A DNA stretch of 64,000 bases from Psammoneis japonica (GCA_008632985.1 QPGO01000080.1:310001-374000); one strand, 5' to 3'. Numbered from the stretch's first letter, positions 240 to 41,159 are shown. Translations and numbers: made by a program. Notes: generated by a model from the sequence alone, not told the origin.

Positions 240-1125
240 TCAATTTTTGGACCGGTCTTGCAATGAATCGAGAATCAGTTCCAGCTTTGTCGAGACGTCA
301 TTCCACGTGTGATTCGTACGTTTGCGCCTTTCTTCGCTTGCGCGGTCCAAATCCAAGTGGCAAAAGGTTCCATTCCTATCAACCATGACTTGAAAGTCAA
401 ACGCTAGATCAGCATGCTCCGCAATCATGTCTGCTGTTCGTTTAACTTCCTCTTGGAATTTTAGCTGAAACGACTTTGGATTCACAATCAGGGGACGAAA
501 AGTTTCCAACTGACTCACGGTAAGTTCCAAGTTGGCTCCTACGGTTCCCACCAACAGGTTTGGCTCGGGGATGCGTCTCGTCTTTTGCAGCATAACAACC
601 GGATTTTCTCCAAAAGGCAAACGAACGGGCAAGCCAACAGTTTCTCGTTGGGGTTGGCGGACACAGGAATTCAGCACGGCCAGCTGTTTTTCGGCAAGCT
701 CAACCTTTTGTAGGGGCATTCCATTCCCAACTTTGTAATGCCGCAATTCGAACTCAACTCTTCTTCAAAGTGAAACGCCTTTGTCATGTCTTCATGGGAT
801 CTTCCGCCTGACACCAAATGTCCCAGTGCAGGGTTTGTGGCAGAATTAAAGTGGCACTTGTGACAGCCACAGATGCTTGCGCCAGCGCTCCAATCCATGT
901 CTGACCAAGGGTGACCCTCGAGTTTCATTGCTTGTTGGGCGTTCTCAACGTTTTTTGAAAGCTTTGCATCCAGCAAGTCGGACTGTGATTTGACAGGAGT
1001 TTCCTCCTCTGCACCGTCAACTTCGAAATGACGAGTCTTGCTCTCGAACGTTTCTGGGGTTTGAGCGACAAAATTGATGCCAAAGTCGTCAGTTTTCTTC
1101 AAAAAGGCCATCATGCAGAGCCATG
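240..1125 (-). pseudogene. Diatom-type host protein with C-terminal DFQ-x4-D-x2-G-x3-HLDLDR (kinase-like) motif; frameshifted near 730-746, 5' half appears TpA-converted
   Basis: ORFs 240..746 and 671..1390 overlap in different frames. The C-terminus DFQVMVDRNGTFCHLDLDR retains TA. The N-terminal part reads HPWS..CGCHKCHF..GHLV, a pattern consistent with Y->C/H. The start position is approximate. Confidence 0.55.
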
Positions 1126-2976
1126 CGTTTGCAAGCGAGAAAACAGAAAGCCTGAAGACAACAGAAACACACGCAGAGGCCGGCTTTGGGTGTGTTTTTA
1201 CTGACAGGTCCATCTTTTGATTGGCGATGAGGGATGAGGGGACGGGAAAAAGAAGAAGTGTGCGACCACTAAATTCGGCAAAATTGAGACGCAGTTTGTG
1301 GTCGGCATTTGGCAAGTCATCAAAAAGTGTGGGACACCCGCACCAGAAATGTCCATTTATGTCCCTGTTCACATGTGCGTAGAAGGTCATCTTTTAAGGA
1401 GCAACAAGCAATTGCACTCTATGTGCGATAAATGAAACGAATCGTGCATGTGTCACAAATTGGAAAATGTGTCAATTCTAAACATTCAGTGTTGTTGATT
1501 GTGTAAAATGTGTGGAACAAAAATGAGAATTGTCGCTGTGTCAAGCATGAGCAATCGTGCTGCAACATGGCACAAGAAAGAGAAACAAACAATGGAAAGA
1601 AATTTGGGCATGGCATCAATGGAGACGAGAATGGACAAGGCTCTGGAAGTTCTTTGCAAACAAAATGAAAACTTTGTGCAGAAACGTCAAAAGAAGCTCG
1701 CACTGCCAGCGACCAGGTGGCACAATGAGGAAACGACAAATGGCTTTGCAAGCAGAGCTTGTTGGGAAAAGGAGCGCCAATTGGAAGATGTGATGTGAAT
1801 GACAAAAGTGCAAATTTGAGTGATGCTCAATGTGAAGATGAAGAAGCAACAGATGCCAGCACAGCACATGGTCTCGGAGCAATCTGCGGCGGCGAAGGAA
1901 GTGAAAAAAATTTTGAGTGTGCCGCAGTTGCCATGGGACTCAAAATGGAGTGCAGGCTGAAAAACCATTGTGTGCGAGGGATGTGGGATTGCATGAAGTG
2001 TTGTCAGCCATTGTCAAAACCCGCTGGAAGTCCAGCAATTTAAAAGCAAGAGATGCTCAAGGCGAGGCAATGGCGGCTGTTTGTCATTGATGCCAAGCAG
2101 CTGATTGCACCACCCAAAATGAAAAAGGATCATTTGTTGAGCCAGCGCTGTTGGCAGCATGTGTTTGGCATGGATGCAAACTTTGGTGCTTGTTGTTGCA
2201 AGAATGGAAAATTTGGCAGATCAGCAAAATCTCTTGCAAATTCACAGAGTTTCAAAGGGTTGCTTTGACAAGCCCCAAAATCTCATTTTGCACAAGCATC
2301 ATTGGAAAGGGATGCATGAATGGATGCAACAAATGGAGCACAATGTTTGCTTTTGGTGCAAGCAACAGATGAAAAATGAAAGCAGAGCACCAGTTGTCAA
2401 ACATCTGTGGGGATGTTCAGAATTTCTTGACGAGGTGCAAGATGTTCCTTTCAACATCACCTTTGTGGATGGTTCCTCAATTGTGTGGACAAATGCACTT
2501 GTTTTGTGAGTGGTTGAAAGAAACCTGGTTTCCTTGCTGGCATTTGCAGAAATTTCTTGGATTCTGATCATGACACCTTGTTGAATGATTGCTGGCATTG
2601 TTTCCCCCATCTCTGGCATGCAAAGATGGCAAAGGACCAGTTGTGTTGAATTGCTGGTGTCATGATCAAAAACCAACAGACACACACATGTTCACATGCC
2701 AACAAATCTGACAGGGCCATTCATGTGTTCTTCATCAGATCAATTTGCTCCTGCAGTTTTGTGCCCAAAGAGCATTCGCACAGTTTGGTTTCATCAACAC
2801 AGCAATTCCTTCCAATTGAGTTGAATGGCATGTCATTGCAGAGGGGTTGATTCTGCAATGATGTGCAATGAAGGTGACTGCAATGTGGGCACAACATCAT
2901 TTCAAAGAATTGTGATGCACCATGCATTGCAGGACGAGATGATGTGAAAAATCATGCACGTTGCTTGGACAAGAAG

Positions 2977-3310
2977 TGCACTGTGCTCAAAGAACAAGCA
3001 CAAATGAAAGCAGAATCAAGCACGAAAAGTGAAAATTGTAAGATTTGTTTCTGCTCAATCATTTTGGGTTTCTCTGAACAAGCTCTCAATGGCCCAAAGC
3101 ATCTGCACTGTTCCTGTGGACAAGAGGCCTTTCGGAGAATGAGATCGTGACAACAGATTGTCCGGATGCGATTGACATTGACACACAAGATGTCAACATC
3201 ATCGCATGATCACACTTGCCATCAACCCACGATTGACGTGCAATTAGAGCACAAATTTGTTTGACATCTCAATGTGTGCATGTGCAATGCACACAACAAT
3301 GCATGTTGCA
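2977..3310 (-). repeat. 3' LTR of the older Gypsy element
   Basis: Homologous to 5131-5509 and 9900-10280 (tgcactgtgct...gcatgttgca), with an internal deletion. Confidence 0.85.
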
Positions 3311-5130
3311 CTCGCCTCCCCAGTTGCACATTGGAGTCAGTCGCCAAATGGCATGATCCGACGGACATTGACAGCATCAACAACGTCACCACATTTGATC
3401 TGCACTGTGCCATTGGCATGCACCGTTGTTGTCACATGTGGTCCAACATGGGGCTGTTCTAGTTTCTGCGAGTCTTTCTCAAGCAGTGTCTTTTCTCTTC
3501 TGCACGTGCAAGGAGTGCATCGAGTGTTTTCTCGAGAGTTGTTTTTGTTTAAAATTTTTTGTTTTTGCTGCTGGATGAATTTCCAGACTGCGACATGTTG
3601 GATGTTGAACATCATGTCAGTGTCAAAGACCAATTGTTGTCCAGGTGCAGCTTGCACAGCAGCATGATGCGCAGAACGCACTGCAAATGCTGCTGCTGAC
3701 AACATTCCAGCATGTCTTTCGAGAGTGTCTTGTTTGTCTCACGCTCTGTGCACATGTGTGGCATTGCGTCAAGCATTCTCTCTGACGTTTTTTTGTTCAT
3801 GTGGACAGCACAAGGACCAAATGTCCTGCTGTTCTTTCATGGTGTTGATTGTACACAGCATTTTGCCCAGTGCTCAATGCATGCTCCCAATTGTGGCGCT
3901 CACTTGCTCACTTGTGGATTTCGTGCAGTTTGGCGGGCTTGCTTCATGCACCACATTGCTCTGCTGCACTGCCACGTTTCTCAAGCAGCGATTGACGATG
4001 GTCAAGTGTGTGACCATTTCATCTTGACAATCAATCCTGTGATGGCTGTGAGTTCCATCATGGATTTTTTGCACTTCAGCCATCCATCAGTTGGATTTTA
4101 ATCGTCATTTGGACGTTTCTTTTTGACATGCTGGTGTCATTTTGTCATTCTGAAGGCACTGCTTTTGTGCACTGAGTGGACAAATGTCCATTTTTCTTTT
4201 CTTTTTCTGAATCTTTGGCACATCTCGTGTGTCGACATGATGCATGTTTTAATGTCTTGCCTCGTGCATTGCACAATGCAACCGTGTGGTGTTTGAGATT
4301 GTCTTTTGCCAGTGTGAAGTGGATGCTGTGCAATCGTGCACCAATCTGTCACAGAGTTTTTTCCAACCATCCTCATGCAAGACGATTTTATCCTTGTGAC
4401 ATGAGCATTTTTCAATCTTGCTCGCCTCCACGAAAAGTGTTTGCATGATGTGTCATTTCCAACAATTTGGAGGGAAATGTCTTTGTCCCATTTTAATGGC
4501 AGGACAGTGTTGCAGGATTCAATTTTCCACAGCAAGTCGGCTGATCACGTCTGTCACGATGATGTTCGCCTTGCCCTCAATTTGTTTTATTTTGGGACTG
4601 AAGTTTTCCATTGTAAGTTGCCAATGCATGACTTTGTCCATTGTGTCTTGTGATCCATGTGCACATTAATCTGTTGGACAAACAGCGTGTTTTGGAATTT
4701 CACAAGTTTTTTCACCATGGACAGAAGTTCTTTTTTCCGCTGCAATGTGCAATGTTGAAATTCGTGCATGATGACAACACAGTTTTTGATTTGATGCACT
4801 CCACATTTTTGGAGACTTTTCATTCTGCACTTGTCCTTTTGCCGTTTGACCTTTGTTGAGGTGAATCTGGCTGGCATTGCACAGGAGATCATTGAGACCA
4901 CATGTCTTGACAGTGTCAACGTGTGATGATGAGATGTCGCAGTGTTCTTTGCGTTTTTCTCAGCGTTGCGATTGCTTGAATTGCCTCCATTTTCTTTGCA
5001 ATCGATTGCATGTTGTTGCGTGTGGAAGTCTTGACAGTTCATTTCAAGTTAAATGGCGGAGTTTCTGTTGTCAACCTTCAAAGCGACTGCTCCAGTTGCC
5101 CAATGCTGTTTCAAGCTTTTCTTGTGCAGG

Positions 5131-5509
5131 TGCACTGTGCTTGAAGAACGAGCACAAACGAAAGCAGAGTCAAGTGTGAAAAGTGAAAATCATGAGATTC
5201 ATTTCTGTCCAATCATTTTGGGTTTCTCTGAATGAGTTCTCAATGGCCTGAGGCACTTGCACTGTTCCCACAGACAAGAGGCCTTTTGGAGATTAAGATT
5301 GTGACAACAGATTGTCCGGATGCAATTGATGTTGACACATGAGATGTCAACATCATCGCACGATTGCATTTGCCATTTTTGACATCCGATCAATTTTGTG
5401 TGATTGATCTGTCCTTCGTACGAACCCACGATTGATGTGCGATTGAAGTGCAAATTCACTTAACATCTTTGCATGTGCATGTGCAATGTGCGCAACAATG
5501 CATGTTGCA
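5131..5509 (-). repeat. 3' LTR of the full-length Gypsy
   Basis: Direct repeat of 9900-10280, TG...CA termini, adjacent PPT. Confidence 0.92.
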
Positions 5510-5539
5510 CTCGCCTCCCCAATTGCACATTGGAGTCAG

Positions 5540-8500
5540 TCATCAAACAGCGCAATTTGACGAATGTTGACAGTGTCAAGGACGTCACCGCATTTGATCT
5601 GCACTGTGCCATCAGTGTGTGCCGTTGTCATCACATGTGGTCCAATGCAGGGCTGTTCCAGTTTCTGTGAGTCTTTCTCGAGCAGCATCTTTTCTCCTGC
5701 TCTGTGTGTGCAAGGAGCACATCAAGCATTCTCTCGAGCATTGTTTTTATTTGCAATTTTTTGTTTTTGCTGCTGGATGAATTTCCAGTCTGCAACATGT
5801 TGGACGTCAAATGTCACGTCTCTGTTAAAGACCAATTGTCCAGGTGTGGCTTGCATGGCAGTGTGATGCACAGAACGTGCTGCAAGTGCCACTGCTGACA
5901 ATGATCCAGCAAAAGGATCTTCAGCATCCAGAGGTGCATGTTGTAAATCAAGTGTGTGGATCATGTTTCCCAACACTTGATGTGCGCATTCAACAATTGT
6001 GTTTGCTTGTGGATTTCGTGCAGTTGCAGGCTTGACTTCAATGCCGTGATCATCTTGCACCATGTCCTTAAATTGGTGTCCAATGAACTCACTTCCACGA
6101 TCACAAGTGATCAACGATGGCCAAGGACATCTGCTCAACCATGTCCATTCTAATGATCCAGCTGCAGTTGTGGATTCCTCATTTGGAATTTCCACAACTT
6201 CACACCATCCAGTTGCTGGATCAATCATTGTCGAACACTTCAGGGCTGGGGGTTTCTTCTTTCCCTTGCGATGCATTTTGTATGGTCCAACAAGATCCAC
6301 ACACAGTCATTCCCATGGCACTGATTCTGCACACTTGGGAGGTAAATGTCCGCATTTCTTGTGTTTCTTTTTGAATTTTTGGCACGCCTCACATCTTGAC
6401 ACGCATTTTTGCATGTCTTCACACAAGACAGACCACCACAAGTGTTGTGAGATTGTTTCTTCTGTTCGATTTATGCCAGGGTGAAGAAGGTGCGCATGAT
6501 GCCAATCCATCACTGCCTTTTGCAACGTCTTTGGAACGACGATTTTGTCCTTGTGACATGTGAGCAACCGGTCTTGCTCGCCTCCATGAAAAGTCTTCGC
6601 GTGAATGGTCTTGTTGGACAATTTGGTGAGAATGTCTTTGTCTCATTTTTGTTCAGCATCAAGAACTTTGCAGTTTAATGGAAAGACATTGTCTTGCAGG
6701 ATTTTGGTGGGACCTTCTCAGCCAACTCTTCTGTGCTGAGGTTTTCCACAGGTTCTGTTTTTTTCATCGTAAGTTGGCCAATTGCATCTGCGACAATGTT
6801 CGCCTTGCCCTCAAGGCACATTGTTTTGAGACTGCATTCTTCTGTCATTAAATGCCAACACATGACTGTGTCCGTTGTGAAATTTTTGTGAGATTTTTGT
6901 GGTCTGTGTGTGTGTTTGTCTGTTGGCCAAACAGCATGTTTTGGAACTCTTTCAACATCTCCACTGAGGACAATGGCTCTTTTTCCATTGCAGTGTAACG
7001 CATCTGCACTCCATTCAGCTTGCAGCTGCAGAAGGCAATTGGTCGGTTGTTCTGTGTGACAACCGCCCCCAATTGAGAATTGCTCGCATCAGCATGTCTC
7101 TCAAAGGGTGTGTTGAAATTCGGACATGACAATGGCACATCTTTGGAGATGATGCGCTTCATGTTTTTGAAGGCTTTTTGTTCTGTTTTGGTCCATTGCC
7201 AATTTGCTTGGTCTGAAGCAAGTTTGGCCAAAGGAGCTAGAACATGAGATCATCGAGGCCACATGTCTCGAAAGCAGTTGATCACGCCGATGAAGCGCCG
7301 CAATTCCTTGCGAGTTGCAGGAGTTGCAATCGCGTGAATCACTTCTACCTTCTTTGGAATGGGGCTGATGCCATTGTGGGTGACATGAAAGTCCAGATGG
7401 TCCACTTCGGGTTCAGTGAAAAAAGACGTTTTGGCATTGACCTTCAACCCGGCTTGTTCAAGGTGCAAAAACACCGTCTCAAGCTTCTTGAGGTGGTCTT
7501 GGAAATCACCTTTTGTCAGGCACAGTGTGTCGTTGACACAAGTCCTGACAAACTCCAGACCTGCCATGAGCTCACTCACGTGCTCTTGGAAAACATCTGG
7601 AGCTCCACAGATTCCCACGGGGAGTCCACAGCAGTCACATTTGCCCCAAGGCATGACAATCATGCACAAACGACGTGCACGCAGCATCAATTCAACATGA
7701 CAGCATCCCACATTTAAATCAAGGGATGTTGCACACATGAAACCTTCAACTTTCTGCAGCACATCCTGAACATTGGGCAGAGGAAATGGCGCACGCATTG
7801 ACCTCTTGTTCAGCTCACAAAAGTCGGATAAAAACCAAACTCAACCATTTTTCTTTGGTTGAACAAAGGTTGGAGCTGCCCATTCAGAACAATTTGTTTT
7901 TCTTGACACTTTTAATTTACACAGTTTTTCAACCTCCTTTCAAGCAGTCACCTCCAAGGCTTGTGGTGCGGGAAATGGTTTGGCATGACACGGACTCGCA
8001 CCCGATTTCAACTTTAAATCCATCAAAAAGGTTTTCAAATCTTTCTGAGAGGAAGTTTGGCTGCTTCTGCTCTTCTGGGGTTAGATGAGTTGCTGCTGCT
8101 GTCACATTGTCAAGGTCAGCAGCATGACAATCTGAGTCAAGGATCCAATTGACCCTGTCATTGAGGCTGATCACAGCATGAGATTCCTCAATGTGATTGG
8201 CAATCAACTTAAAAACATCGACATTGAAGAGTGCATCAACATTCTTCATGGGCGCAGTTGCATCCTCCCATTTGATCTCTTCATTCAAGAAGTCTAACAC
8301 TGTCCCAAGACTTGACATTAAAAGTCGCATCCCATGATCATGTCATGATGACTCGAAGAAGAAGGGGCATTGTCAACATGTGCCGTTGTTTCAATCATCT
8401 TGTGTTCATCAAATTCGGGCAAGGAGAATTGGGCTTTGCACCGACCATCAGTCGTAAAGTGCCCTCCTTTGGTTTCCCAAATTTTGGTGGCGGGTGTTTT

Positions 8501-8681
8501 TGTTCTGAGTTGGTTTCCACGTGAATTTGCGCAAAATTGTGGTTGACGATGTTCCGCTGTCAAGGAGAATGCGCAGAGGCTTGTTTTTCGCTTTGCCCAA
8601 TGAGGCACTCACACAAGCGACAACTGCTGGACTAGCACGAATTGCTTTGGCCCTTTTTCTGGGCTTCCCAATGTCCAGCAA
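5540..8681 (-). pseudogene. Gypsy pol (PR-RT-RNaseH-IN), broken by frameshifts and stops
   Basis: The RT catalytic Y-x-D-D motif reads CVND. KCDCCGLPVG replaces the usual KY.Y..LPMG. IAFCS replaces IAFYS. Confidence 0.9.
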
Positions 8682-8708
8682 TGCACGAGACCCCTCTTGC
8701 GGTGCAAG

Positions 8709-9850
8709 TCATTCGTCAGAATCGCTGTGCATCATTTTTTCAAATTGACAGTTCTCCTCATCAAGGGTGTCAGAGTCGCAATCTTTGCTCTTGCGCTTTT
8801 TTCCCTTGTTTGAGGAACTCGCTTTGAGTGTTTTTTGAACTGCCTGGACTGCCGTGGCATTCAACTCTTCCTTGCAAGAGGCATTTTCGTCATCGCAATG
8901 TGACCACGTGTGATTGCCATTTGAACGGCGCTGTTTTGGATCACGCTCAATGTTTCCACAGCATTCTTCTGCCAGCTTCTTAATCAACCAGCATTTGTCC
9001 GTGTTGTGAGTGGATTTTTCGCATGAAATGCACCACTTCTCGGACTGAGAATTTTCGGCACTGTGTTGGTGACCATTTTTGGAACCACGTTTGGCGCCAT
9101 TCTTGGCTTTCGATCCAGCACTGCCACTGGGATCAGCCTTGACATGAATGCTGTCAAATGCATCCTCTGCAACCTCTGGGCACTCCAGAAACTCAACCAA
9201 CCCATTGTGGGTGTGTTTCAAAATTTCGAGACCTTGGACGGTCGACTGATGCTGCCACTTTTGAGGTGCAAGATTAAAGAGGATGTTCTTGAGCTCATCC
9301 TCCTCGATCTTCTGATCCTCTCCAAAGGAAGGATGGAATTTGAGGTCTTCGTTGACTTCCTGCACCCAAGCAGCAATTTTGCAAACTTTCTTGGACTCTG
9401 TCTTCTTGAGATCGCGACGCAAACAACGTTTCTGAATCTGGAGTGCATTCTTGGGAAACACATGTCGCGCAAGGTGCTGCAGGCATTTCTCAAAGCTTCC
9501 TTCTTCAGATTCGTCTTCAACATTCGTTGCTCCATTCTCAAAAGCATGCAGAGCATCTCCTTGCAACAGCACACGCATGAGACGAAACTCATCCGCTTGC
9601 TTCTTGATGTTCTGGCCCACTGGAAGTTGATCGCAGCTCTTGAGAAATTCGATGCACTTGGGAACGCCCTGCTTCTTGTGGTGCTCGACATTGACAGTGC
9701 AGGTGTGACCATCCTTCTTCTTGGGATAAAAACACTGCTCCATCTTGAGACACTGACTTGGTTTGAGCATCTTCAGCTCAGAATTTGATTCCAACGGCTG
9801 AGGAACGATTTTCTCTTGCCTTGACAAAGTCTTGGCATTGGCTGCATGAG
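8709..9850 (-). pseudogene. Gypsy gag
   Basis: ORF 8709..9926 directly inside the 5' LTR, with a CCHC-type knuckle WCISCEKSTHNTDKC; one Tyr in 405 aa. Confidence 0.8.
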
Positions 9851-9899
9851 GTGAAAGCTTCATCTGCGACTTGTCACCTTCTGTGGTGTGCATGCACAA

Positions 9900-10280
9900 T
9901 GCACTGTGCTCGAAGAACAAGCACAAATGAAAGTGGAGTCAAGCATGAAAAGTGAAAATTACAAGATTTGTTTCCATCCAATCATTTTGGGTTTCTCCGA
10001 ATGAGCTCTCAATGGCCCAAGGCATTTGTGCTGTTCCCACAGACAAGAGGCCTTTCAAAGAATGAGATCGTGACAACAGATTGTCTGGGTGCGATTGACA
10101 TTGACACGTGGGATGTCAACATCATCGTGCGATCATGTTTGCCATTTTTGACATCTGATCAATTCTGTGTGTGATTGATCTGTCCTTTGTGCGAACCCAC
10201 GATTGACGTGCAATTGAAGTGCAAATTCATTTGATGTCTTCATGTGTGCACATGTGATGTGCATGACAATGCATGTTGCA
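9900..10280 (-). repeat. 5' LTR of the full-length Gypsy
   Basis: Direct repeat of 5131-5509, followed by TSD CAGG. Confidence 0.92.
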
Positions 10281-14577: not shown

Positions 14578-14772
14578 GCTGGATCAAAGCAAAGAATGGC
14601 AGAGGTGGACAGTGTGAGTTAGAGTTGGCAGTGATTTTGGGTGGTGGGCCGAACTCAGAAAATGCAGCACTTGTGACTCAATCCACTTCAAACTTGGCAA
14701 GTTGCTGTCAATCACAGTGACAAATTTTAACATTTTACTTCCCATTGTCCACACAAATTTCCTGCTTCACAA

Positions 14773-26381: not shown

Positions 26382-26517
26382 TGCACACGCAGAAACCTGG
26401 CATTGTTCTGCAGAGCCTGTGTGCTGATGAAAAAGTTGGGCTCAGGATCAAAAATGGTGGCCTGCTTGTTCAGCTCACAAACTGAACAAATCAAAATTGG
26501 GTTTTTGTTGCAGAGAA

Positions 26518-26813
26518 TGACAGGATTTGAACAGGATTTAGGTGCACGCGAAATGTCGTGCGCTGTTTGGTTTGCTGCGCACAGTTTTGTGTGCTTTGGT
26601 TCCGCGCGTTCGCACACAATGCAGTTTGCTTTCGAGCCACAAGGCTCACAAGAACAATGACAGTAGCCCGATTGTACCGACTTGCACGTCTTTCGGCTCC
26701 TGCAACGGTCTCTGAGCGGAGACTCATCTGCTGTTTAGACAGCAGCAAGGAGTTGTTGTTTGAACTCTTGCCATTTGCCTTCAATTTCTGTCAGAGAAAC
26801 AAGTGACCTGACA
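26518..26813 (+). repeat. Copia 5' LTR
   Basis: Colinear repeat of 35638-35933 at offset 9120. Confidence 0.92.
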
Positions 26814-26991
26814 ATGCCTTCAATTTCTGTCAGATTGACAGTCTTGCTCATTGTCAACCCATTGAGCAACCGCCATCGTCGTCGTTGATTTACCGACGAC
26901 GCCATTTCAATTCTGCGTGCACCTCCGTGTGTGTTCTACATGCATCGGCAAGTCTGCGCGCATTCAATGCCAGGCATCAGCAGGATTTTAA

Positions 26992-28922
26992 CGGGGACCC
27001 CCCGCAAGTCTGTACAACCATCCGATGGAGCATTTTTTGCGAGTTGAACGCAACTCTTCTCGTGTTGTCACCGCGGTGACCTTCCTTTGAAGTCTGTTGC
27101 ACACCAACCTTGTTGTGGCTGTCCTGCTGGCGATCCTTTTCGATGAATTGTTTGTTCCACTCCTGTTGCTGACATTTGGTGAAAAGGATCGCCAGCAGAA
27201 AGTGTTTTGCAACAACAACAATTGCGTCTCAATGTCACCGTCACCAATCAGCAGCGACACCCCAAACGCCTCCAAGCCAACTCAAATGGAAGAAAAAGCC
27301 GACAAGTGGAAGCATGCAATCCCGGCAGATGATGCATGGGGCCAGCATGGAAGAAAACCAGGGTTTCAGTGCCATGGGTGAGTCGCAAAATGTCAATGTT
27401 CCTTGTCAGTGTTGCATCAACGTCTCGCATCTCACAAACGTTTGTTTGGTCGTTGCAACTGTCCTGCTGTCAATGCTTTCACATAAGTCGTTTTTTCTGC
27501 TCCTGTTGGTGACATTTGATCGAAAGGATTGATGGCAGCAGGTGTTTTTATGACAACAATTGTTTGTCTCTATGTCGCCGTCGCCAAGCCAGCGACACAA
27601 AAAACGCCTCCACCAGGTCACCCAAATGGAAGGTAAAGCCGATGGAAAGAAATGAAGGAAGAGGCGCAAGCAAGAGACACAGAATGCCCCAAGCTGTTCC
27701 TTTGTTGACAGAGAAGTTTTGAACATGAAAATCACCACAAGCTCTGTCTTTTGTGGATTGGTGGCAACAAACAAACATGCATTCAGTCAGAGGCGCCGGA
27801 AACAAAAAAGGAAAGTCAAGATGTCTCCTGTGGGATGTTCACAATGCCTGCCCATCAGAGAATGACAGTTTGAGGGTTTGAAACATGGTCTGAGCTGGGA
27901 CAACTGCAACTAGAAACACTGCTGTTTGTCAGCATGCACAGCATTCGCCACAACTCTGCATTCCAGGTTTTGATTCTGTGGCTCTCATCCCAGGTTGTGT
28001 CCAACAGAAAGACTCCACAGAGTGTTACATTGGTGTCTTGTGATGGCAATTGCTACAGTGCTTGAGCAACTCCTGCACAGAGAAACACCCAACACACCAG
28101 TCGTGTTGCGTTCTCGCGGATGGGCTTGACTGTGGTCGTTGTCGAACAGAAACACTCTACAAAGCATTGCGTTGGTGTCTTGTGATCATGTGTGAACAGT
28201 TGTTGCTGTGCTCAAGCAACTCCCACACAGAGAAACCGCTCTCAAGCGTCATCCTGCCGTGTGCCGGCACGCAAGGGCATGCTGCTCCACCGCAGCTCAT
28301 TTGCAGAAGCAATCGACTGATCAACCAATTTCTTGCCCGATTCTTTGGATCCGCCATCATCAACAGTCTCGGAATCTGACTCAATGTGACGTGTTTCCGA
28401 ATTGCCAGAAGCATCGGGAGAAGCATGACCTTTGTTCTTCTTGCATGTGCGAGTGGCCTGCTTCTGACAAAGTCTGAATTGCCTCCACCACTGCTGCACC
28501 GTCCTTTTCCCTCGCGTTGCTGAGGAGATGTTTGTTCCCAATCCTTTGAGGAAGACACCCTTCAAAATTCTGTGCATCACAGCAACTGTGTTGGAGTTCT
28601 TCACCCGCCAGAGCAACAGCATGGTGGCACTTGCCTCTGCAGTCGTTTGCTGGGAGGGCAACTGAATTTGATGCGCCTTAGAGGCAGATGAGACATTGGA
28701 CTTGTGGAGTCCTGGAAAGCCACCAGATTGCAGTGACTTCAGCATGAGGTCACTGTCCATCCATGCACATGGAACCGCAGCTGGAAAAGCGGCAATAAGA
28801 AGCCACACGGCCTCGACAATCTCCACAGTTGGTTTGCTGTTTTTGTGATTAAAAAAACATCACGCAGCAACCACGGAGCTGAAGGAGCTACGGACAACGT
28901 ACAGACTTACGGGGGGTCCCCG
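26992..28922. mobile_element. Non-autonomous TIR DNA transposon with TTAA target-site duplication (superfamily uncertain, piggyBac/Kolobok-type target)
   Basis: 24-bp TIR CGGGGACCCCCCG(C/T)AAGTCTGTAC; TTAA at 26988-91 and 28923-26; inserted in the Copia 5' UTR; internal diverged duplications; no transposase recognised. Confidence 0.85.
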
Positions 28923-29703
28923 TTAACGTCACCGTCAAGTCTCCTTGCCGCTGGACATCTGGATTGATTGTGCTGCCTTTTGTCGCTGAAGACATGCATT
29001 CAACGGTCATGTCCAAGTCTATCCTTGATCCTCATCCCTTGACATGCCCATTCAACGGTTAACGGTCAAGAACCCCACATGTTCAAGGATCTTCGTCGCT
29101 GAAGACATGCACACACACATGTCTTCACGGCCAAGAACTTGCACCGACTCTTTGGACTGCGGCTTTGCTGCCACTCTACAAGCACACCAAGTCCACTGCA
29201 CCTGATCTGCCCCGGACCACTGGTGCTCTGCAGTTCTGCCAGGTCCACGAGGACGACTGTGAGAGCAAGCAGCCGTGGTTGCAGCCTGCATTGGGGCGAG
29301 GGTGTTTTCCCACGTTTGTTCGTTCGTCCACAGTGCCTGGCGCCTGCATCAACTGGCCAGCCTGATTGGGAAATCCAACCAACATAAAACAAGAATGGTT
29401 CGGGGGTCTTGTCCACCTCTGGTCAGCTCACCTGCAGGGGTTTGCAACCCGCCACTCCGCTCGCAAGCAACCCAAAGCGCCGCTGGCTGCGGGTTCGGAC
29501 GTGCCGGCACAACTCTGCAGACCGGATGGGAAGTTTAGCACTCAACAACGAATGGGGTGACACAGCCCGGCGACTTCTGATTTTAAGATAGTTCAAGATT
29601 TCAAGTCAAGTCCATTTCAAGTCAAGTCCATTCTCACCCAAGTTTCAAGTCCACCTTCGCGTCCCAACCAGAATCGCTTGTTCTGACACCGCTTTTGTCT
29701 GCC

Positions 29704-32700
29704 ATGGTTCTCACTTGTCAGCAACAAACTGATGGTTTCAAGCACCTTGTTGGAACCGTGCTTGCCCAAGGTGCTGGAAGCCCTCTTGGTTTGGCTTTGA
29801 CCCACGACGGCACGGACTCGCATCAAGAACTCTTCACGTTCACACCGCCCCAAATCGACTCGCTTGAGTGCGACAACGGCGCTGATGTGATCCCTTTGCC
29901 CCGTGGTTGTAAGAACATGTTAGCAGCTCTAGTTAGTCTGTACATTGTCAAAGCACACAAAGGTCTTGATGTTGCCAATGACTCCTCGTTGTTCACGCAT
30001 GAGGATTTCCTTGCCTGCTGCCTCAGCCCCGACTGCATGTCTTCTGTGTCCGTCGGCAGCTCGCCTCTTGCACCTCCGCACGTCACCAACCCGACCAAGG
30101 CACGTGACCTGGTGTGAGACTTCAAGCGAGGTGTCAAGCGTGACCCCACTGCTTTCACGGCTCTCAAATCCGACAAGCAGTGGCACACTTGGCACACCTC
30201 ACTTGTGGCACAAGCCCGTGCCCAAGACGTTGAGTGCATTCTAGACTCGTCGTACAAACCGACCAGCCCCAAAGACAAACTGCTCTTTGCTGAACAGCAA
30301 AAGCACATGTTCGCCGTCTTCGAACGCATCCTTCTCACTGACAAGGGCAAGGCTCTCATTCGCGAAAATGTGGGGTCTTCTGACGCCCAGACCGTCTGCC
30401 GCGCCTTGTCCGAGCATGCGCTCGCCTCCACCCGCGCATCCATCGAGTCCTCCACCTTGCTCACGCACCTCACCACCGCACGTCTTGGTGATGGCACTTG
30501 GAAAGGTCTGACCCACGGGTTCATCCTTCATTGGCAGGATCAGTTGCGCAAGTGCGAGGCACTCATCCCGGCCAGTGACCACTTCTCTGAAGGACAGAAG
30601 CGTGTCATGCTCGAGAATGCCGCACATCCTGTCGAGGAACTCCGCGCCGTCAAGAACCAAGCTGATCAGCATTGCACGCAGAGTGGCAAGAGCCTCACAC
30701 ATGATCAACATTGTGGCTTGCTCCTCTCCGCGGCGGCCCAATGCAACAGCACGTTTCAACCCAAGACGACACCTCGAGCTCCCCAACGCGCCATGTGCGC
30801 ACATGACGTCTGCTCCGAGGAACCATCCGATGATGTGTTCTGTGACATCGACAGTGACATTGACGTCCTTCAGGCTGGCGCTGCCCACACTCGCGGTCCC
30901 AGCCTCACCGGTGACCAATGGAAACGTCTCCCCCCCGACCACCAACGGATTTGGGATTCGTTGCCCCATTCCTCCAAGGCGATCATCCTTGAGCATTCTC
31001 GTCTGCCTCCCCGCAACCCGCGAGCCAGCAACTGCCATGAGTCCGTTGCGGCCAACCTTCACGACCAACGACTTGGGAGTGACGGTGATGTCAACTTGTC
31101 CAACACGACTCCTGCTGACTCTGGTGACCCCGCTCCAAATGTGGATGCCACTTCAGATGATCCCATCCTGGCGCACCTCACCAAGTGCAAGCCACTGCCA
31201 CCCGGTGATCTGCACCGCCTGTTGTCTCCTAACCAAGCCTCCAACGCCAGTCGACCGGGCCCATCCACCACTCCCTCTACCTTGCCTGCTCCCACAGATG
31301 ACACAGAACTTAACGGCCACACTTGCCGCCACGTCAATGACCACAATGTCGTTTGCTCTGCCTCCGCTCATCGCTCCACCTCTCGCCAAGTCGACGTTCA
31401 GGGCATTGACGACCATCAATTGGTGGACATCCCCATTGTCACCACTGGTGCTGTCATTGAGACACAGCGTGGTCCCGTCATCGCCATCCTCCATCAGTGC
31501 GCATGCACGGGAAAGGGCAAGACCATTCACTCCTGCGGCCAGCTCGAATGGCACAAACATGATGTCAACGATCGCTCTGTCAAGGTGCCCAACGGCTTGC
31601 AATGTGTCGCCACCCCTGATGGCTGTGTCACCCCAATTGACATCAAGGGCAGCCTGCCTTGTGTTGCCATGTGACCCTGCACTGACGCCGAATGGGACAC
31701 CCTGCCCCATGTCATCCTTGCCGGTGATGACACATGGGACCCTTCCATCCTTGATCACTCTGTCGCTGACGACAACCAGTGGTGCGACGTGATCTCTGAC
31801 CTGCAGGACGATCCCACTGCTGACCTGTTTGACGAATGCAGCAACTGCCATCACCGTGTCGTTGTCAACAAGGCCATCATGTCTGCCACCTTCTCTGCCA
31901 ATCACGCGTCCGCCCTCGATGACCACCTCATTCCGAATGACGACGTGTTCTGCGAGTGTCATCTACACGCGATTGACCCCAAGGATGACAACGTTCCAAC
32001 CCCGGAGCGCACTGTGCAGCCCAAGGACCCCCCATGCGAGTCTCTTCGGCCTTGCTTTGGTTTCCAACCTGCCGATGCGGTTCGTCGCACTTTTGACTGC
32101 ACCACGCAGTGCGCCCGCATGCCCGCCGGTGCTCACCTTAAGAAGGCCTGAAATTCGCCCAACCCTGCCCTTAATGTCCACCGCCGCAACGAGCCTGTCG
32201 CCACTGACACCATCTGTGCCGACACCCCGGCTGTCGACTCTGGTTGCACCAGCGCCCAACTGTTTGTTGGCACTGAGTCTGCTGTCACTGACGTCTGCGG
32301 CACCAAAACGGACAAAGAGTTTGTCAACACACTCAAGGATCAGATCCGTGAGTGTGGTGCTCCATCCAAACTCATCAGCGACCGTGCTCAAGTTGAGATC
32401 AGCAACAAGGTGCTCGGGATCCTGCGAGCCCTCTTTGTCTCCAGCTGGCAAAGTGAGCCTCACCAGCAACACCAAAACTTTGCCGAACGTTGATGCCAGA
32501 CCGTGAAGCGCATGGCGAACACTGTCATGGACTGTTTCGGTTTGCCTGCCCACACATGGCTGCTGGCGCTCATGCACGTGTGCTTCATGCTCAACCACAC
32601 AGCGTCCCCACGTCTCCACTGGCGCACGCCCCTCGAGACTCTCACTGGCTCGACCCGGACATCAGCCCATTGCTTCGCTTTCACTGGTGGGAACCCGTGT

Positions 32701-35630
32701 GCTTCCACCTCGATGACTCCGGTTGGCCGTCTGAATCCCGTGAGTTGCGTGGACGCTTTGTTGGCATTGCTGAGCACGTCGGCCACCAGATGACCTTCAA
32801 GATTCTCTCTGACGACACTCAGAAGATCCTCTGCCAGTCCAACGTATGATCCGCTGCCACCGATCCTGCCGTTCGAAACCTGCATCTTGATCCTCCTGAT
32901 GGGGAGCCACCTGAACCCATCATCAAATCTCGCCATGACGACAACCCCGTCGATTCACCCGATGGGGAGATCAGGACACCCAAGATGCCAGTTTTCGATC
33001 CGCAAGACATCATCGGACGCACCTTCCTCATGCAGCCACAAGAGGACGGACAACGCCACAGAGCTTGCATCGTCAAGGCCGTCGAAGACCACGAATGGAA
33101 AGTGAACGGCAACCCTGAGCTCACTGGGTTCATCTGCTCTGTCAACAACGACGAATGCGAGGAAGTCCTGGCCCACAACGACATCATGAATCACATTGAG
33201 CAAGAAGACGAAGACACCACTGTTTGGAAATTTCGATGCATTGTGTCACACGAAGGACCTCTGAAGCCTCATGACCCAACCTGGAAAGGCTCAAGCTACA
33301 ACATCATGCTTGAATGGGAAAGTGGGGAGATCACGTCCGAGCCTCTTGCCATCATCGCCAAGGACGACCCTGTCACCTGTGCCATCTGTGCACGAGAGAA
33401 CGGACTTCTCGACACTGATGGCTGGAAGCGGTTCCGCACCATCGCGAGGCGCCAGAAGAAGCCACTCCGCATGGCCAACCAAGCCAAGCTTCACTCCTTC
33501 CACACTGCACCTCGCTACAAGCACGGATGCGAAGTTCCCCGGAACTGCAAACACGCCATGTCACTAGATGAACACAACGGCAACCGCAAATGGGGAGACG
33601 CAACTAATCTCGAGATGGACCAACTCGATGAATATGAAGTCTTTCATGACTGCGGGCCCTCCGAGTCTTCCACTCCTCCTGCGGGACACAAGAAGATCCG
33701 AGTGCACCCAGTGTGCGACGTGAAACACGACGGCCACCACAAGGCACGACTCGCAGCCGATGGGCACCTCACGGACGCACCCATCGACAGTGTCTACTCC
33801 GGAGCAGTCTCCCTCCGTGGCCTTCGGCTGATGGACGCGTTCCAGGTCTAGGTGGGACCACGCACTGCTGAACTGTGACATCGATGGTTTTTTGAATCGC
33901 GTCGTATGTCGCGCACGTACATTTCTACGTGATTTTGGCGAAATTTTGCATCATTTTACAGTGCAATTGTCAGGCGATCCATTCAACAACTTTTAACATT
34001 TTTTTCTTCTACGCCATTCTCGAGTGTCTCAAGAATGGTGCAGGGCAGGCGCATTGTCCAAAACTTCGAGTACGAACAGAGATGTGTGCACTGCAAACTT
34101 GGCCGTTTGTTTTGTGTCAAAGACAAATGCATCCATTAACCAGAGTGCGAACTACAGAGCTCGCACGCAGAATTCTACGGGGCAAATGTCACAAAAAGTC
34201 CCACCTGGGACTGGAACCCGTCGATGATTTTCCTGGCCGAACTCAACGAGTTGGAGACATGGGCCACCGACATTGGCAATGCCCACCTTGAAGCCACCAC
34301 CAAGGAGAAGCTGTGCATCGTAGCTGGACCCAAATTTGGCAAACTCGAAGGCCACATTCTTGTCATCCACAAGGCCCTGTGTGGACTGCGCAGCTCCGGC
34401 CTCTGCTGGCATGAGCGCTTCGCCGACTGCCTGTGAGCTGAAGGTTTCTTCCCCTGCCGCGCCAAACCCGACATTTGGATGCGCAGGAACGGCGACCACT
34501 GCGAACACATTGCCGTTTATGTGGATGACCTCGCCATTGCCATGAAGGATCCTCAATCTTTCATTGATGCTCTCACGGAAAAGCACAAGTTCAAGCTTGA
34601 GGGTGCGGGATCGATTGAGTTCCATCCAGGCTGCGACTTTTCCCAGGATCCTGACGGCACCTTGTGCCTGTCTCCGCGCAAGCACATTGAACGTATGGTC
34701 GACAGCTGCACACGACTGTTTGGGGAGAAACCTGCCACCAACACCCTGTCACCTCTGGAGAAGGGTGACCACCCCGAACTGGACACTTCCGAACTGCTGG
34801 GGCCCGATGGCATTCAACAGTTCCAGTCTCTTGTTGGTTCACTCCAATGGGCAGTGTCCCTTGGTCGAATTGACATTGCCACGGCCGTCATGTCACTCTC
34901 TAGCTTCCGAGCTGCACCCCGTCAAGGCCACTTGGATCGTGCCAAATGCGTCTGTGGGCACCTCTCCAAGATGCGACACGGCGCTCTCCGCGTTTGCACG
35001 GAAGAGCCCGACCATTCGGATCCCCCTGCTCCAGCCCATGAATGGATGCATTCCGTGCACAGCAAGGCAGAAGAGATGATCCCGAAGGATGCTCCACCGC
35101 CCCTTGGCAAGTTCGTCACTGCCACCCACTACGTCGATGCAAACTTGTGCCATTGCATGCTCACCGGACGCTCTGTCATGGGAATGCTCCACTTCCTCAA
35201 CAAATTCCCGGCTGATTGGTTCTCTAAGAAGCAAGCCACCGTGGAGACTGCGACCCACGGGTCTGAATTTGTTGCCGCAAGGACTTGTGTCGAGCAGATC
35301 ATCGACCTGCGCATCACCCTGCACTGCCTCGGCATCCCGATCCGTGACATCAGTCACATGTTCGGTGACAACAAGTTGGTTGTAGACAGTGCCACCATCC
35401 CGCACTCCAAGTTACACAAGCGACACACCGCACTGTCATTCCACCGTGTGCGCGAGGCAATTGCCTCTGGTTGCCTTGAGTTCCACTTCATCAAAGGATC
35501 CCGCAACCCTGCTGACATTCTCAGCAAGCATTGGGGTTGCTCCCAAGTCTGGGACCTTCTCCACCCCCTCATGTTCTGGAACTTCATTCCATCCAAAGTC
35601 GAATCTGTTTCTGTGACTCCTCAAGCAAAC
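29704..35630 (+). pseudogene. Copia gag-pol, with stops, frameshifts and pervasive Y->C/H substitutions
   Basis: ORFs 29695.., 30205..31674, 31789.., 32985..33851, 34224..34436 and 34479..35780 are colinear with a Copia polyprotein. Confidence 0.9.
33834..34222. mobile_element. 389-bp MITE with ~25-bp imperfect TIRs and a 4-bp TSD (possibly Sola-type) inserted in Copia RT
   Basis: Left GACGCGTTCCAGGTCTAGGTGGGAC; right (reverse complement) GACGGGTTCCAGTCCCAGGTGGGAC; TSD GATG at 33830-33 and 34223-26. Removing it restores GLRLM-IFLAELN. Confidence 0.9.
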
Positions 35631-35637
35631 TGGGGAG

Positions 35638-35933
35638 TGACAGGATTTGAACAGGATTTGGGTGCGCGCGAAATGTCGCACGCTGTTCAGTTCACCGCGC
35701 ACAGTTTTGTGTGCTTTAGTTCCGCGCGTTCGCGCGCAATGCAGTTTGCTTTCGAGCCACAAGGCTCACAAGAACAATGACAGCAGCCCCATTGTGCTGA
35801 CTTGCACGTCTTTCAGCTCCTGTGATGGTCTCTGAGCGGAGACTCATCTGCTGTTTAGACAGCAGCAAGGAGTTGTTGTTTGAACTCTTGCCATTTGCCT
35901 TCAATTTCTGTCAGAGAAACAAGTGACCTGACA
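35638..35933 (+). repeat. Copia 3' LTR
   Basis: Follows the PPT; matches the 5' LTR. Confidence 0.92.
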
Positions 35934-38280
35934 ATGCCAAAACCCATCAGAGTGCTGATGGCATGAGCAATGTGCCAAAGAGCTCACTGCAAACAATGAC
36001 AGTGGACAACACATGTGCCAGCAAGAAAGAGCGAGAGAAGATCTCATGGAGATCATCTTGTCCATCTAAAAGAGTCTGACCATCATCCACACACAGTCTG
36101 CCCATGTGTCCTGCACAGAGCAGGCTGACAGAAATCCAGGAGAAAGGAGTGCCTTGCATCAAGTGTGGACTCAAGAACCACAAGAAATGCTTGTTGTGCT
36201 TGGACAATGGCGGCCACAGGTGCTTTGATTGTTGCAGACACAATGAAAAGCAAACCATCAAAAGCTGCATGGCAGCAAGGAGCACAACCACACAAAGCTT
36301 TCACACTTCAGACTGTGTGACACACTGCACCAGGAGCACGTCAATTTGAAGTGCCATGAGTGCAACATCAAGTGGAACAAGAACAACTGCAGAGTGGGTC
36401 ATTTGTGCAATGCAAAAAACCAAAGATGGAGAGTTGCAGGCAGAGGTGCATTGCCAGAAGAAGCAAAAGAAGGACTCTTGAGATGCTTCACAGAGAACAG
36501 GAGGGCAGTGGTTTTGTTTGTGTGGATTCAACTTCAGCTTGTGTGGCATTGCCAGTGATGTTGGCTGAAAAGCATGTGCAGTGGCAACAGCAGAGCAAAC
36601 ATGGCAGTGTTCACAACAGCAAACACAGCACAGTGACTGTTGTTGTGCTTGTGATTTGACATTGAAACAGGCAATGTCAAGTTGCACAACAGGCCCTTGC
36701 ACAGGGAAACAGCGCAAAGGCCAGATCCGCAACCCCAGGTGTGACGTCTGCAAAACGCAGACAACAATGACCAAATTCTCTGACCTTGCTGCTGTGGTGG
36801 TGTTTCCATGATGAGAAAAGATTCTGATGTTGTGAGATGATGTGACACAATGGCATCAAGGTTGTCAATGTTGTTGGAATGTGCATTGTGGAGTGATGTC
36901 ATGGAAAACCAAGTCAAGCAAACAGCCTCAAGATGGAAGCGCACTTGACATGAGATGAAATCAGCAAAAAACTCTCAAGTTGAGGTGTGTCCTCTCTCTG
37001 CATGTGCAGGTGGAGGGATGCTGGACAAATCAGACAAGGGCCGTGAAGAGGGTCCCTTGTGATGGGCCTCATCTTGGGGGGAACGAATTTTCTTTGCAGC
37101 CATCCTGCACGAGTCATGAAGGCATTGCAGGATTCATGCAGGTTGGCATGAACAAAATGCAGATTTGTCACATCAGATGCAGACCATCCTGTGCTGCAGG
37201 CAGGTCAACCCAATGCAGTGATGCAAAACCTGTGTGGAGTTCTTCTCTGACATGGCAGCACAACCAAACACAACAGAGGACAAAGCTGGTGGCTCAGGGT
37301 TGTCAGCACCAGCATCAGGAAAATGGCGCCAGTGACAGTGGCACAAAAAGCATGGGGGGCATCGTTGTGAGTCCAAAGAATGGAACAGGCAAGCAGGGAG
37401 CATGGCAGAAGCTTGTTTGGAAACATGGGAGGGGCTGCAGGGGAGCAAGATGACTCGGCACTCTGCCCACACTGTCAACAACTGGCTCCCGATGGAAGAC
37501 AACTTGGTGTGTCAGAGGCTGGAGTTTCTGTGCACAACATGGCAGTGCCAACAAGGGGCTGGAAGCATGTTCTCAACTTTTGGAGCAATGTTGATGAAAA
37601 GAAAAGGGAAAAAAGGGTGGAGCCCTGGTGGAAAACTTGGCACACCTGCTCCAAATGCAACCCCGCTTTTTGCCATGATTGCCAGCGCAGCGGCGCTTCC
37701 TGGTTTTGTGGGGCAAATGTGCTGAGAAGGATGCTTCACCCACCCTCCACCTGCTGAGGGCTAAAAAAAAAGTGAGGTGGCTTGTGATGGAATGTGTTGC
37801 AACACCGCATGTCTGTCGTGGCAGGTGAGTTTGTTTTTTGTTTGTTTGAGTGTTGAGTGGGAGGTGCGGGTGTCTCAACTGACCATTTTTTCGAATTCCG
37901 AGCGTTGGGTTCAAATTTTCATTGATTCATCATTCAAAGAAATAACACATGAAATTGTTTCATTGATGTCAACCATGACATAAATTTATGCTGATGTTCA
38001 TCTCATAAGACTGTCCAGAAAGGCGCGAAGAACACATTCGATGCTGTACGTGCTGCATCATACAGCAGGTACTGTACTGTACCGTACGGTAGATCCAACG
38101 CTTCAAAAAATTCAAAATTGTTCTTTCAACGCACCGTAGAATCTACAGGATCCCTCATACATTTCTGTCAACGCACGCGAAGTCGAGCACCTTTCAAAAT
38201 TGATCCGGTCGAGTTTGGCAAAGCAAATAATCTTCTCACAAATTGCAAAAATTACAAGAACGCAAACAACGACAAAGGCA

Positions 38281-41140: not shown

Positions 41141-41159
41141 TATGGAGATGTCGATAGAC

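Follow-up and report, generated by a model that had tools for sequence, protein, structure and literature searches.

Why should transposon-derived DNA lose a single dinucleotide, TpA, almost completely while the host genes beside it are spared? The question is raised by a stretch of 64,000 nucleotides from Psammoneis japonica (GCA_008632985.1 QPGO01000080.1:310001-374000), analysed here at its full length and referred to as the window. A preliminary description had proposed a repeat-targeted, adenine-directed hypermutation resembling the repeat-induced point mutation (RIP) of fungi. As judged from sequence comparisons, it is very probable that a host-driven process acting at the level of DNA has changed A:T to G:C pairs at TpA, after integration, on both strands, within blocks of mobile elements and in a manner that depends on the flanking bases.

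Observed/expected (o/e) dinucleotide ratios were calculated for each kilobase and for pooled compartments across the window. The per-kilobase TpA o/e was 0.00-0.23 at 1001-38000, 0.03-0.08 at 44001-47000 and 0.00-0.12 at 51001-64000, and 0.64-0.75 in the host DNA at 39001-43000. Depleted DNA comprises a main domain at 751-37750, a sea of transposons (TA o/e about 0.08, TG and CA about 1.65); a second domain at 43751-47250, which has low copy depth, ends sharply at 47287 and holds no recognisable transposable-element protein; and 50451-64000, the depleted part of the second copy of a long duplicate, which equals 751-14306. Pooled over the first two domains (40.5 kb), the ratios were 0.08 for TA, 0.54 for CG, 1.65 for TG and 1.67 for CA, compared with 0.59, 0.88, 1.27 and 1.19 in the pooled host islands (7.25 kb). 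The remaining dinucleotides are similar in the two compartments, with AT, AA and TT unchanged (AA o/e 1.20 in depleted and 1.12 in host DNA). The near absence of TA from some 37 kb of transposon DNA, from about 43.1-47.3 kb and from the duplicate, the abundance of TG and CA, and the normal TA of the host-gene islands, all reported in the preliminary description, are thus borne out by both sets of ratios.

The window holds 638 TA in total. Host DNA carries about 41 TA per kb, a density at which the longest TA-free runs (1761 nt at 11794-13555, recurring in the duplicate; 1695 nt at 36067-37762; 1429 nt; and 1364 nt) are impossible by chance. The depletion edges lie at about 750, 37.8 kb, 43.75 kb and 47.29 kb, with boundaries of the mobile-element blocks sharper than 250 nt, and the neighbouring host islands are spared (TA 0.59). 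At one such edge, no TA is found from 46568 to 47287 and the next 45 nt hold seven. The GC content of the domain is 43-58%, and 43-50% over most of it.

The direction of the change was read from conserved tyrosines. The window was aligned by tblastn with 51 Gypsy polyprotein homologues and with 143 of 150 Copia homologues, seven with a Tyr content below 2% being left out, and a column was kept if at least 70% of at least 10 homologues agreed. At 43 conserved Tyr columns of Gypsy the window reads Cys in 19, His in 13, Tyr in 4, Phe in 3 and another residue in 4; at 15 columns of Copia it reads Cys in 4, His in 8, Tyr in 2, Phe in 1 and no other residue. Pooled, the 58 conserved-Tyr codons give Cys 23, His 21, Tyr 6, Phe 4 and other 4, with Tyr replaced in 52 columns and Cys or His found in 44. 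Other conserved residues were retained, both in Copia (Ala 20/21, Asp 21/23, Gly 36/40, Pro 26/26, Trp 11/11) and in Gypsy (Phe 33/36, Trp 20/24). Because the homologues conserve Tyr (their own Tyr content is 3.8-4.0%) and the other residues are kept, TAY>TGY and TAY>CAY are real changes away from TA. On these alignments we consider it settled that TA is the ancestral state and that the change was A:T>G:C at TpA with both strand outcomes, as had been argued from the Tyr to Cys and His replacements. The Tyr counts quoted earlier were reproduced (none in 12449-13693 and 19416-20783, one each in 8709-9926 and 30205-31674), and all five quoted peptides were located: CVND at 7529-7540 on the minus strand and, on the plus strand, CGLRSSG at 34380-34400, NAHLEA at 34278-34295, KHWGC at 35526-35540 and VCDVKHDG at 33711-33734. 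The term adenine-directed holds in part: the A:T>G:C change at TpA stands, and the attacked base may be the adenine or the thymine alike, TpA being self-complementary and A>G on one strand equal to T>C on the other.

The timing of the change can be judged from long terminal repeats (LTRs), the two of which are made identical at integration by the mechanism of reverse transcription. The Gypsy retrotransposon at 5131-10281 on the minus strand, with integrase, RNase H, reverse transcriptase (RT) and a gag-side open reading frame (ORF), has LTRs of 380 nt at 5131-5510 and 9900-10281 that are 85.9% identical; across 376 aligned nt they differ by 52 transitions and 1 transversion, and their CA/TG discordances are divided 7:7 between the two orientations. 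Likewise, the repeat pair on the Copia side differs by 20 transitions and 1 transversion. Strand balance is also seen in the Tyr codons (Cys:His 23:21, p = 0.88) and in the equal o/e ratios of CA and TG (1.67 vs 1.65). Ten paralogue pairs together differ by 465 transitions and 74 transversions, and among these transitions 228 are accounted for by 114 CA/TG double mismatches, 98 by CG vs TG/CA, 34 by TA vs TG/CA and about 105 by other contexts, a pattern to be expected if TA was lost independently in each copy and on either strand, unlike the outcome of editing a sense RNA or a single cDNA strand. We regard it as established by these sequence comparisons that the change took place after integration and affected both strands equally. 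The symmetrical divergence of the LTR pairs after integration agrees with the preliminary description, which had argued against RT error and RNA editing.

Loss of TpA depends on its neighbours. For each NTAN class, a density ratio of depleted domains to host islands was calculated, with bootstrap confidence intervals (CI). ATAT is almost erased (ratio 0.014, CI 0.003-0.044), followed by ATAC (0.026), ATAG (0.046), GTAC (0.085), ATAA (0.10), CTAC and CTAG (both 0.14), GTAA (about 0.145) and CTAA (about 0.22), and TTAA is nearly untouched (0.81, CI 0.45-1.7). An additive two-strand model, fitted by hand, in which one neighbour sets the rate of each strand (k: T 2.35, C 1.26, G 1.0, A 0.11), comes close for four of the six mixed classes (ATAA, for one, is predicted at 0.085 and observed at 0.10, and ATAC at 0.027 and 0.026) and overestimates survival for CTAA (0.33 predicted vs 0.21) and GTAA (0.25 vs 0.14). 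Class survival alone does not separate the 3' neighbour of the changed A from the base two positions 5' of it. Tyr codons ending in T have become Cys in 16 cases and His in 8, and those ending in C have become Cys in 7 and His in 13 (p = 0.07); at 24 paralogue sites where one copy still has TA, an A follows the unchanged A in 14 and the changed A in 6. Both sets of outcomes favour the 3' neighbour: with moderate confidence, the target on each strand would be the A of 5'-T-A-B-3', where B is T in preference to C or G and A is strongly disfavoured, or equally the T of 5'-V-T-A-3', where A is best.

A second process has acted on the same DNA. Of 63 conserved Arg columns of Gypsy, 24 now show Cys, His or Gln, which reveals CpG decay, and CpG>TpG/CpA change of the methylated-cytosine type is shown to be the slower of the two. 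The young, high-copy Copia element has a TA o/e of 0.05-0.23 with CpG still at 0.75-0.97; the Gypsy cluster has TA at about 0.1 and CpG at about 0.5; and the stretches at 22-26 kb and 36-37.7 kb (22001-26000 and 36001-37750), in which no protein is recognisable, have TA at 0.01-0.06 and CpG at 0.02-0.15 and look like very old, fully decayed elements. Intermediate states are provided by two further features. A 393-nt segment within Copia (33830-34222, plus strand; joint 33829/34223), absent from most other copies of the family, is less mutated and keeps 11 TA, of which a single one lies within TAT and none within ATA. Furthermore, a foldback resembling a miniature inverted-repeat transposable element (43063-43556, arms of 210 nt, 91% identical) is partly depleted (TA o/e 0.36), and two of the differences between its arms are GTAC vs GTGC. 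Since Copia, the relics, the 393-nt segment and the foldback form a gradient, TA loss increases with age and is far quicker than CpG decay. A hand estimate places the rate at about 100-1000 times background (about 87% of TA lost vs one LTR transversion in 376 nt, a single transversion), and the TpA process would thus run roughly two to three orders of magnitude above background substitution. Through both processes, old elements drift towards a TG/CA-rich, stop-poor and Tyr-free sequence.

Copies outside the assembled window were examined through contigs assembled separately from an independent DNA run (X1, word depth about 110). One contig of 1539 nt equals 35999-37537, within the 1695-nt TA-free run, with no differences; others match 44482-45078 with no substitutions and one 1-nt gap, and 46773-47332 with no differences. 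The TA-free sequence is therefore not a product of basecalling, one of the doubts attached to the preliminary description. In the Copia region, other copies still have TA at positions that read CA or TG in the window. Among the best-supported 40 of the 467 differences between X1 and the window in that region, eight show TA in other copies against CA/TG in the window, or the reverse, with the share carrying TA or the alternative ranging from 15% to 96%, and 20 have TG/CA in the window and CG in other copies; at five adjacent double sites, CA and TG are split at about 40-50%. TA, TG and CA thus coexist at the same sites among copies of one Copia family. The footprint is probably widespread, with hypermutated Copia relatives in environmental data: a metagenome scan gave two related Copia loci, with TA o/e of 0.06 (L001, 1-1348) and 0.37 (L002), and three of the 150 Copia library homologues (P0197, P0220 and P0234) contain 0-0.5% Tyr and 9-11% Cys plus His.

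Whether repetition itself attracts the process can be asked of the direct duplicate, in which 1-14306 recurs at 49702-64000, 49.7 kb away, with 99.825% identity. The 25 differences between the copies comprise 10 single-base homopolymer indels, two other single-base gaps and 13 substitutions, 11 of which are CpG vs TpG/CpA and none of which is at TpA, and the 750 nt of host DNA within the duplicate keeps normal TA. The duplicate could have arisen by segmental duplication in the recent past, from two haplotypes placed one after the other or from an overlap in the assembly. Moreover, the TA-free stretch at 36.0-37.7 kb lies at single-copy depth, as counted from reads of at least 90% likeness, a count to which copies pushed to about 85% are invisible, so that this stretch may once have been repeated. 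These observations do not uphold the description of the process as repeat-targeted and RIP-like, and the duplicate gives no sign that duplication is the trigger, as it is in RIP, a weak point if the duplicate is an assembly or haplotype artefact. We infer that silent chromatin or small RNA, and not the duplication of a sequence, guides the targeting, and, from intermediate states only, that the process is still active.

Several other explanations must be weighed against a host-driven, post-integration change at TpA. An artefact of assembly or basecalling, by which a long-read basecaller misreads a modified base at TpA as TG or CA, would be in keeping with an assembly that is probably long-read based, as the homopolymer indels separating the duplicate copies suggest (10 of 25 differences), and X1, for which no library type is on record, also has single-base indels relative to the window. 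Misreading is nevertheless extremely improbable, for X1 contigs match the TA-free 35999-37537 with no differences and two more depleted stretches without substitutions, a metagenome contig from elsewhere is equally depleted, and a basecalling error would neither divide LTR discordances 7:7 nor spare TTAA while erasing ATAT. Copies might instead be born mutated, as with APOBEC3G and HIV, through ADAR-like editing of element RNA or a deaminase acting on cDNA during retrotransposition; most recognisable elements here are LTR retrotransposons, and each copy has its own pattern. However, sense-RNA editing yields only TG (Cys), and His is nearly as frequent as Cys (21 vs 23); cDNA editing predicts a single orientation of LTR discordance; and non-coding relics, an element with terminal inverted repeats (TIRs), the foldback and the later 393-nt insertion are all affected, to graded degrees. 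In addition, the main text of a preprint on Bigelowiella natans shows this signature arising in mitotically growing lines, in DNA that is already integrated and resident (Mettrop et al., bioRxiv 10.64898/2026.01.13.699255). Editing during retrotransposition is on these grounds very improbable.

Error-prone repair synthesis at methylated or heterochromatic DNA, with a WA>WG signature of the Pol-eta type or Pol-iota-like insertion of G opposite T, could be recruited by the T:G mismatches that heavy CpG decay creates. Although A:T>G:C is the main outcome of such polymerases, we judge this improbable, and the Pol-eta candidate of the preliminary description is not supported: ApA is undepleted (AA o/e 1.20 vs 1.12), A/G differences after A (18) are about as frequent as those after G (14), compared with 254 transition bases at TpA-type sites, and polymerase errors do not typically erase one strictly defined dinucleotide almost completely. 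Young Copia, moreover, lost TA with CpG still at 0.75-0.97, and TA loss was therefore not waiting on CpG decay. If, on the other hand, no special process existed, elements TA-poor from the start, through a composition or codon use of their own, would have undergone ordinary methylated-CpG decay, for which the Arg columns of Gypsy (24/63 Cys, His or Gln), the duplicate (11 of 13 substitutions at CpG) and the X1 comparison (20 of the best 40 differences with window TG/CA vs CG) all speak. This can hardly be believed, as the loss of TA is beyond the reach of CpG decay, 52 of the 58 conserved Tyr columns have lost their Tyr (44 to Cys or His) where homologues have 3.8-4.0% Tyr, and other Copia copies keep TA where the window has CA/TG; the Tyr columns and the Copia copy states refute CpG decay as the sole explanation and leave it as a second, additive process. 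GC-biased gene conversion, or a general AT>GC drive in recombining repeats, would match the net direction of change and the repetitive nature of the DNA. It too has next to no likelihood, since the overall GC content of the domains is not high (43-50% for the most part) and a single dinucleotide is affected, with a flank rule, AT, AA and TT being unchanged.

Other observations weigh against the account preferred here, that of a host-driven change at TpA in resident mobile DNA. CA/TG double mismatches can also arise from CpG, and a homogeneous two-copy model, calculated by hand, predicts about 48 of the 114. In a three-copy alignment, the third state is TA at two sites and CG at two, numbers too few to split TpA from CpG ancestry. 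The assignment of the neighbouring base has p values of about 0.04-0.07, and the host baseline is small (7.25 kb, with 11 TTAA). No de novo event separates the 99.8% identical copies (0 of 13 substitutions at TpA), and X1, its library type being unrecorded, is possibly the data set behind the polishing of the assembly. Finally, the involvement of class II elements is read from one TIR element and one foldback.

As to mechanism, the host-driven process would rewrite TpA to TpG or CpA in resident, integrated elements, and its chemistry would be an enzymatic base modification. It would be a process of the same kind as the de novo TpA hypermutation of B. natans, here saturated over LTR retrotransposons. 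Within this explanation, a polynucleotide adenine deaminase (A to hypoxanthine) is the foremost candidate, at somewhat below an even chance. Adenine deamination fits the 5' T; it is mildly disfavoured by the preferred 3' T and the immune TAA, which are unlike the known targets of ADAR and ADAT: ADAR disfavours a 3' U, and U33-A34 of tRNA is the ADAT context, with U before the edited A. Thymine oxidation of the TET/JBP type at TpA, followed by mispairing or faulty repair, is a less likely but, by analogy, serious rival to adenine deamination; oxidised thymines mispair with G. Unlikely, and to the same degree, are a specialised error-prone repair polymerase and some other chemistry.

Besides the Gypsy element with two LTRs, the minus strand carries a partial copy of the same family (2976-3712, an LTR and the adjoining internal part), a further Gypsy pol/gag fragment (10300-11800, paralogous to 7698-8939) and an integrase zinc-domain and RNase H fragment (13557-14618, 86% identical to 6200-7178); Pfam identifies Gypsy integrase, RNase H and RT pieces on this strand at 5.7-7.8 kb and 13.5-14.6 kb. 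The Copia-like element occupies 28668-35938 on the plus strand, with an RVT_2 domain at 34140-35777 (Pfam), conserved residues that are nearly intact apart from Tyr and a terminal repeat (35635-35938) 93% identical to 26515-26818. Its word depth in the DNA run is 3x10^4 to 2x10^5 vs about 110 for single-copy sequence, that is, several hundred to more than 1000-fold. A further, very small run of this sample, X3 (0.16 million letters), gave contigs over Copia only, at 28001-36004, with 90-95% likeness.

A candidate non-autonomous, DNA-transposon-like element of about 1.46 kb was found at 17838-19302, with TIRs of roughly 65 nt and TCA on both flanks. Its arms differ by TA vs CA and by CG vs TG/CA. 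The TIRs (17838-17905 and 19234-19302) contain three copies of a GGGGTGTAA-like subrepeat, two of which read GTGCAA in one arm. The flanking TCA could, speculatively, be a 3-nt target duplication of the PIF/Harbinger type. The P-like and Harbinger identities given in the preliminary description were not confirmed by Pfam or PDB, the leads consisting of this TIR element and of weak Atlas matches of 15569-17200 to P-element transposase families, all below threshold (scores 0.76-0.85, recognition at 1650).

Loss of TA also shapes the apparent coding content of the depleted DNA. Stop trinucleotides in the window number 219 for TAA and 132 for TAG vs 1506 for TGA, and because TA loss removes TAA, TAG and the Tyr codons, long Tyr-free ORFs result. 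Open frames of 400-540 codons occur without being genes, for example at 12443-13693, 15569-17203 and 19380-20783. Searches of the Tyr-free ORFs at 12443-13690, 15569-17200 and 19380-20780 and of seven others found no Pfam family even at E<=10, and comparison of these three with PDB gave 0, 0 and 2 matches, the latter at chance level. Several of the long 'transposable-element proteins', lacking a match in Pfam or PDB, may perhaps not be genes, and gene callers would predict Tyr-free, Cys/His-rich 'orphan proteins' from such DNA.

Two host islands with normal TpA complete the window. Island B (37751-43000) holds an expressed minus-strand gene at 39606-42919 (39.6-42.9 kb), with three short GT-AG introns (41825-41913, 42179-42273 and 42637-42711) whose joints appear in contigs of run X2, which behaves as RNA, with spliced joints, though it carries no such label; Pfam gives only a weak PT-repeat match for the protein. 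At 38070-38090 and 38438-38453, a short distance beyond the depleted domain, lie short tandem arrays with a 5-nt period and GTAC in each unit, in which no TA has been lost. Island A (47251-50450, plus strand) contains an expressed exon at 47369-48000 and beyond, and 5'-3' exonuclease/PolA-like exons at 48.2-49.65 kb. The latter, at 48174-49649 on the plus strand, encode the N-terminal and SAM-fold domains of a 5'-3' exonuclease, preceded by a weak DNA_pol_A match, and their product is probably an organelle-type PolI-like protein. The closest named relatives of the exonuclease exon are from Triparma (68-71%) and from the diatoms Seminavis, Fistulifera, Cyclotella and Leptocylindrus (60-71%); the best unnamed match reaches 81%, and no identical protein is on record. 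On this one gene, the only conserved host gene of the window and closest to diatoms and bolidophytes, the sequence is assigned to a diatom-like ochrophyte and not to Bigelowiella natans. For a 442-aa ORF at 47025-48350, comparison with proteins of 243-774 residues gave no relative at E<=0.001.

The preliminary description held that no such system had been described. This is superseded by the preprint on B. natans, whose main text describes exactly this signature (Mettrop et al., bioRxiv 10.64898/2026.01.13.699255). In mutation-accumulation lines, according to that text, 231 of 302 de novo mutations fell in two viral inserts, and 230 of the 231 were A>G or T>C changes, without exception at TpA, the rate being about 6x10^-7 per site and generation, some 1000 times background; TpA mutations arose only in some lines. 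The text further reports 124 small TpA-poor clusters in the genome, with low-TpA coding sequences enriched for RT and DDE domains, proposes adenine deamination, names an ADAT2 homologue as candidate and cites the preference of ADAR and TadA/ADAT for U before the edited A. Common to B. natans, as presented there, and the window are A:T>G:C change at TpA with both outcomes, restriction to foreign or mobile DNA, and a footprint of low TpA with high CpA and TpG; here the A:T>G:C transitions (LTRs 52:1 and 20:1), the restriction to TpA and the confinement to mobile DNA were all found. The hosts differ, B. natans being a chlorarachniophyte (Rhizaria) and the window coming from a diatom-like ochrophyte. 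The hypermutable inserts of B. natans are described as still TA-rich (Rho 0.45; 3.3% and 9.2% TpA), in contrast to 37 contiguous kb at 0.08 here, and a footprint cluster there could consist of as few as three windows of 1 kb; de novo events are demonstrated for B. natans, whereas the window has the footprint only. The words 'trinucleotide' and 'flank' have no occurrence in the preprint's main text, which in the part covered contains no flank rule, LTR test or Tyr test; relative to that text, the flank rule is new. In searches of the open full-text literature, subscription journals being outside this scope, the B. natans preprint was the one description of the TpA signature to be found, and none was found for diatoms.

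The process is thus not peculiar to one species or to viral inserts, and the metagenome footprint suggests that it is common in marine protists. A dedicated DNA-editing defence might be common to at least two branches of the Stramenopila-Alveolata-Rhizaria (SAR) lineage, Rhizaria and Stramenopila, acting on silenced mobile or viral double-stranded DNA (dsDNA) by A:T>G:C change at TpA, with TAT as the best target and TAA immune, through either a natural adenine deaminase of dsDNA or an enzyme that modifies thymine with mutagenic effect, in both cases of a novel type; we put this forward tentatively, as a proposal slightly more apt to fail than to hold. Were it true, the footprint could be used to find the enzyme by comparative genomics, and two distant hosts enable a comparative search. 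The flank rule is a constraint that any candidate enzyme must reproduce, and a natural enzyme making A:T>G:C changes in dsDNA would be of interest to base-editing work. Near-total erasure of the target, by removing Tyr codons and two of the three stops, creates long false ORFs that mislead gene prediction.

To our knowledge, fungal RIP was before 2026 the only defence known to rewrite resident DNA. The likeness is considerable, both being post-integration, DNA-level, dinucleotide-specific transition hypermutation that wrecks transposons, with similar footprints and divergence of copies. As the preliminary description had stated, however, the chemistry runs in the opposite direction: RIP changes C to T, chiefly at CpA, and so generates TpA, raising TpA/AT, whereas in the window TpA is destroyed and GC is raised (43-58%). 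RIP also needs duplicated sequence and a sexual phase and is found in fungi; dependence on duplication was not seen in the window, and the host is not fungal. AID/APOBEC and ADAR likewise disable invaders by deamination-type transitions. APOBEC, however, makes C>T/G>A changes with strand bias on cDNA, and ADAR acts on double-stranded RNA, whereas the window shows change of resident dsDNA on both strands with a 3' T best, without strand bias (Cys:His 23:21, LTR 7:7).

In dinoflagellates, 5-hydroxymethyluracil (5hmU), made by TET/JBP enzymes, is reported to be enriched on repeats and needed for transposon silencing, and in Crypthecodinium cohnii it preferentially replaces T in TA and TC dinucleotides, while base-resolution mapping in Breviolum minutum gave no motif (PMC11572971, PMC11071213). 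The likeness to the window is a modified T of an A:T pair, on repeats, in a SAR lineage; the difference is that, in the portions of those reports covered, 5hmU is an epigenetic mark and is not reported as mutagenic. Methylated-CpG decay leaves the same products, TpG and CpA, in the same DNA; it removes CpG rather than TpA and is slower here. TpA hypermutation itself was thus already published, in the text of the B. natans preprint, and what the window adds is a further host lineage, distant from the first; a footprint saturated across transposons; proof, from LTRs and from polymorphism among copies, of post-integration change on two strands; and the flank rule.

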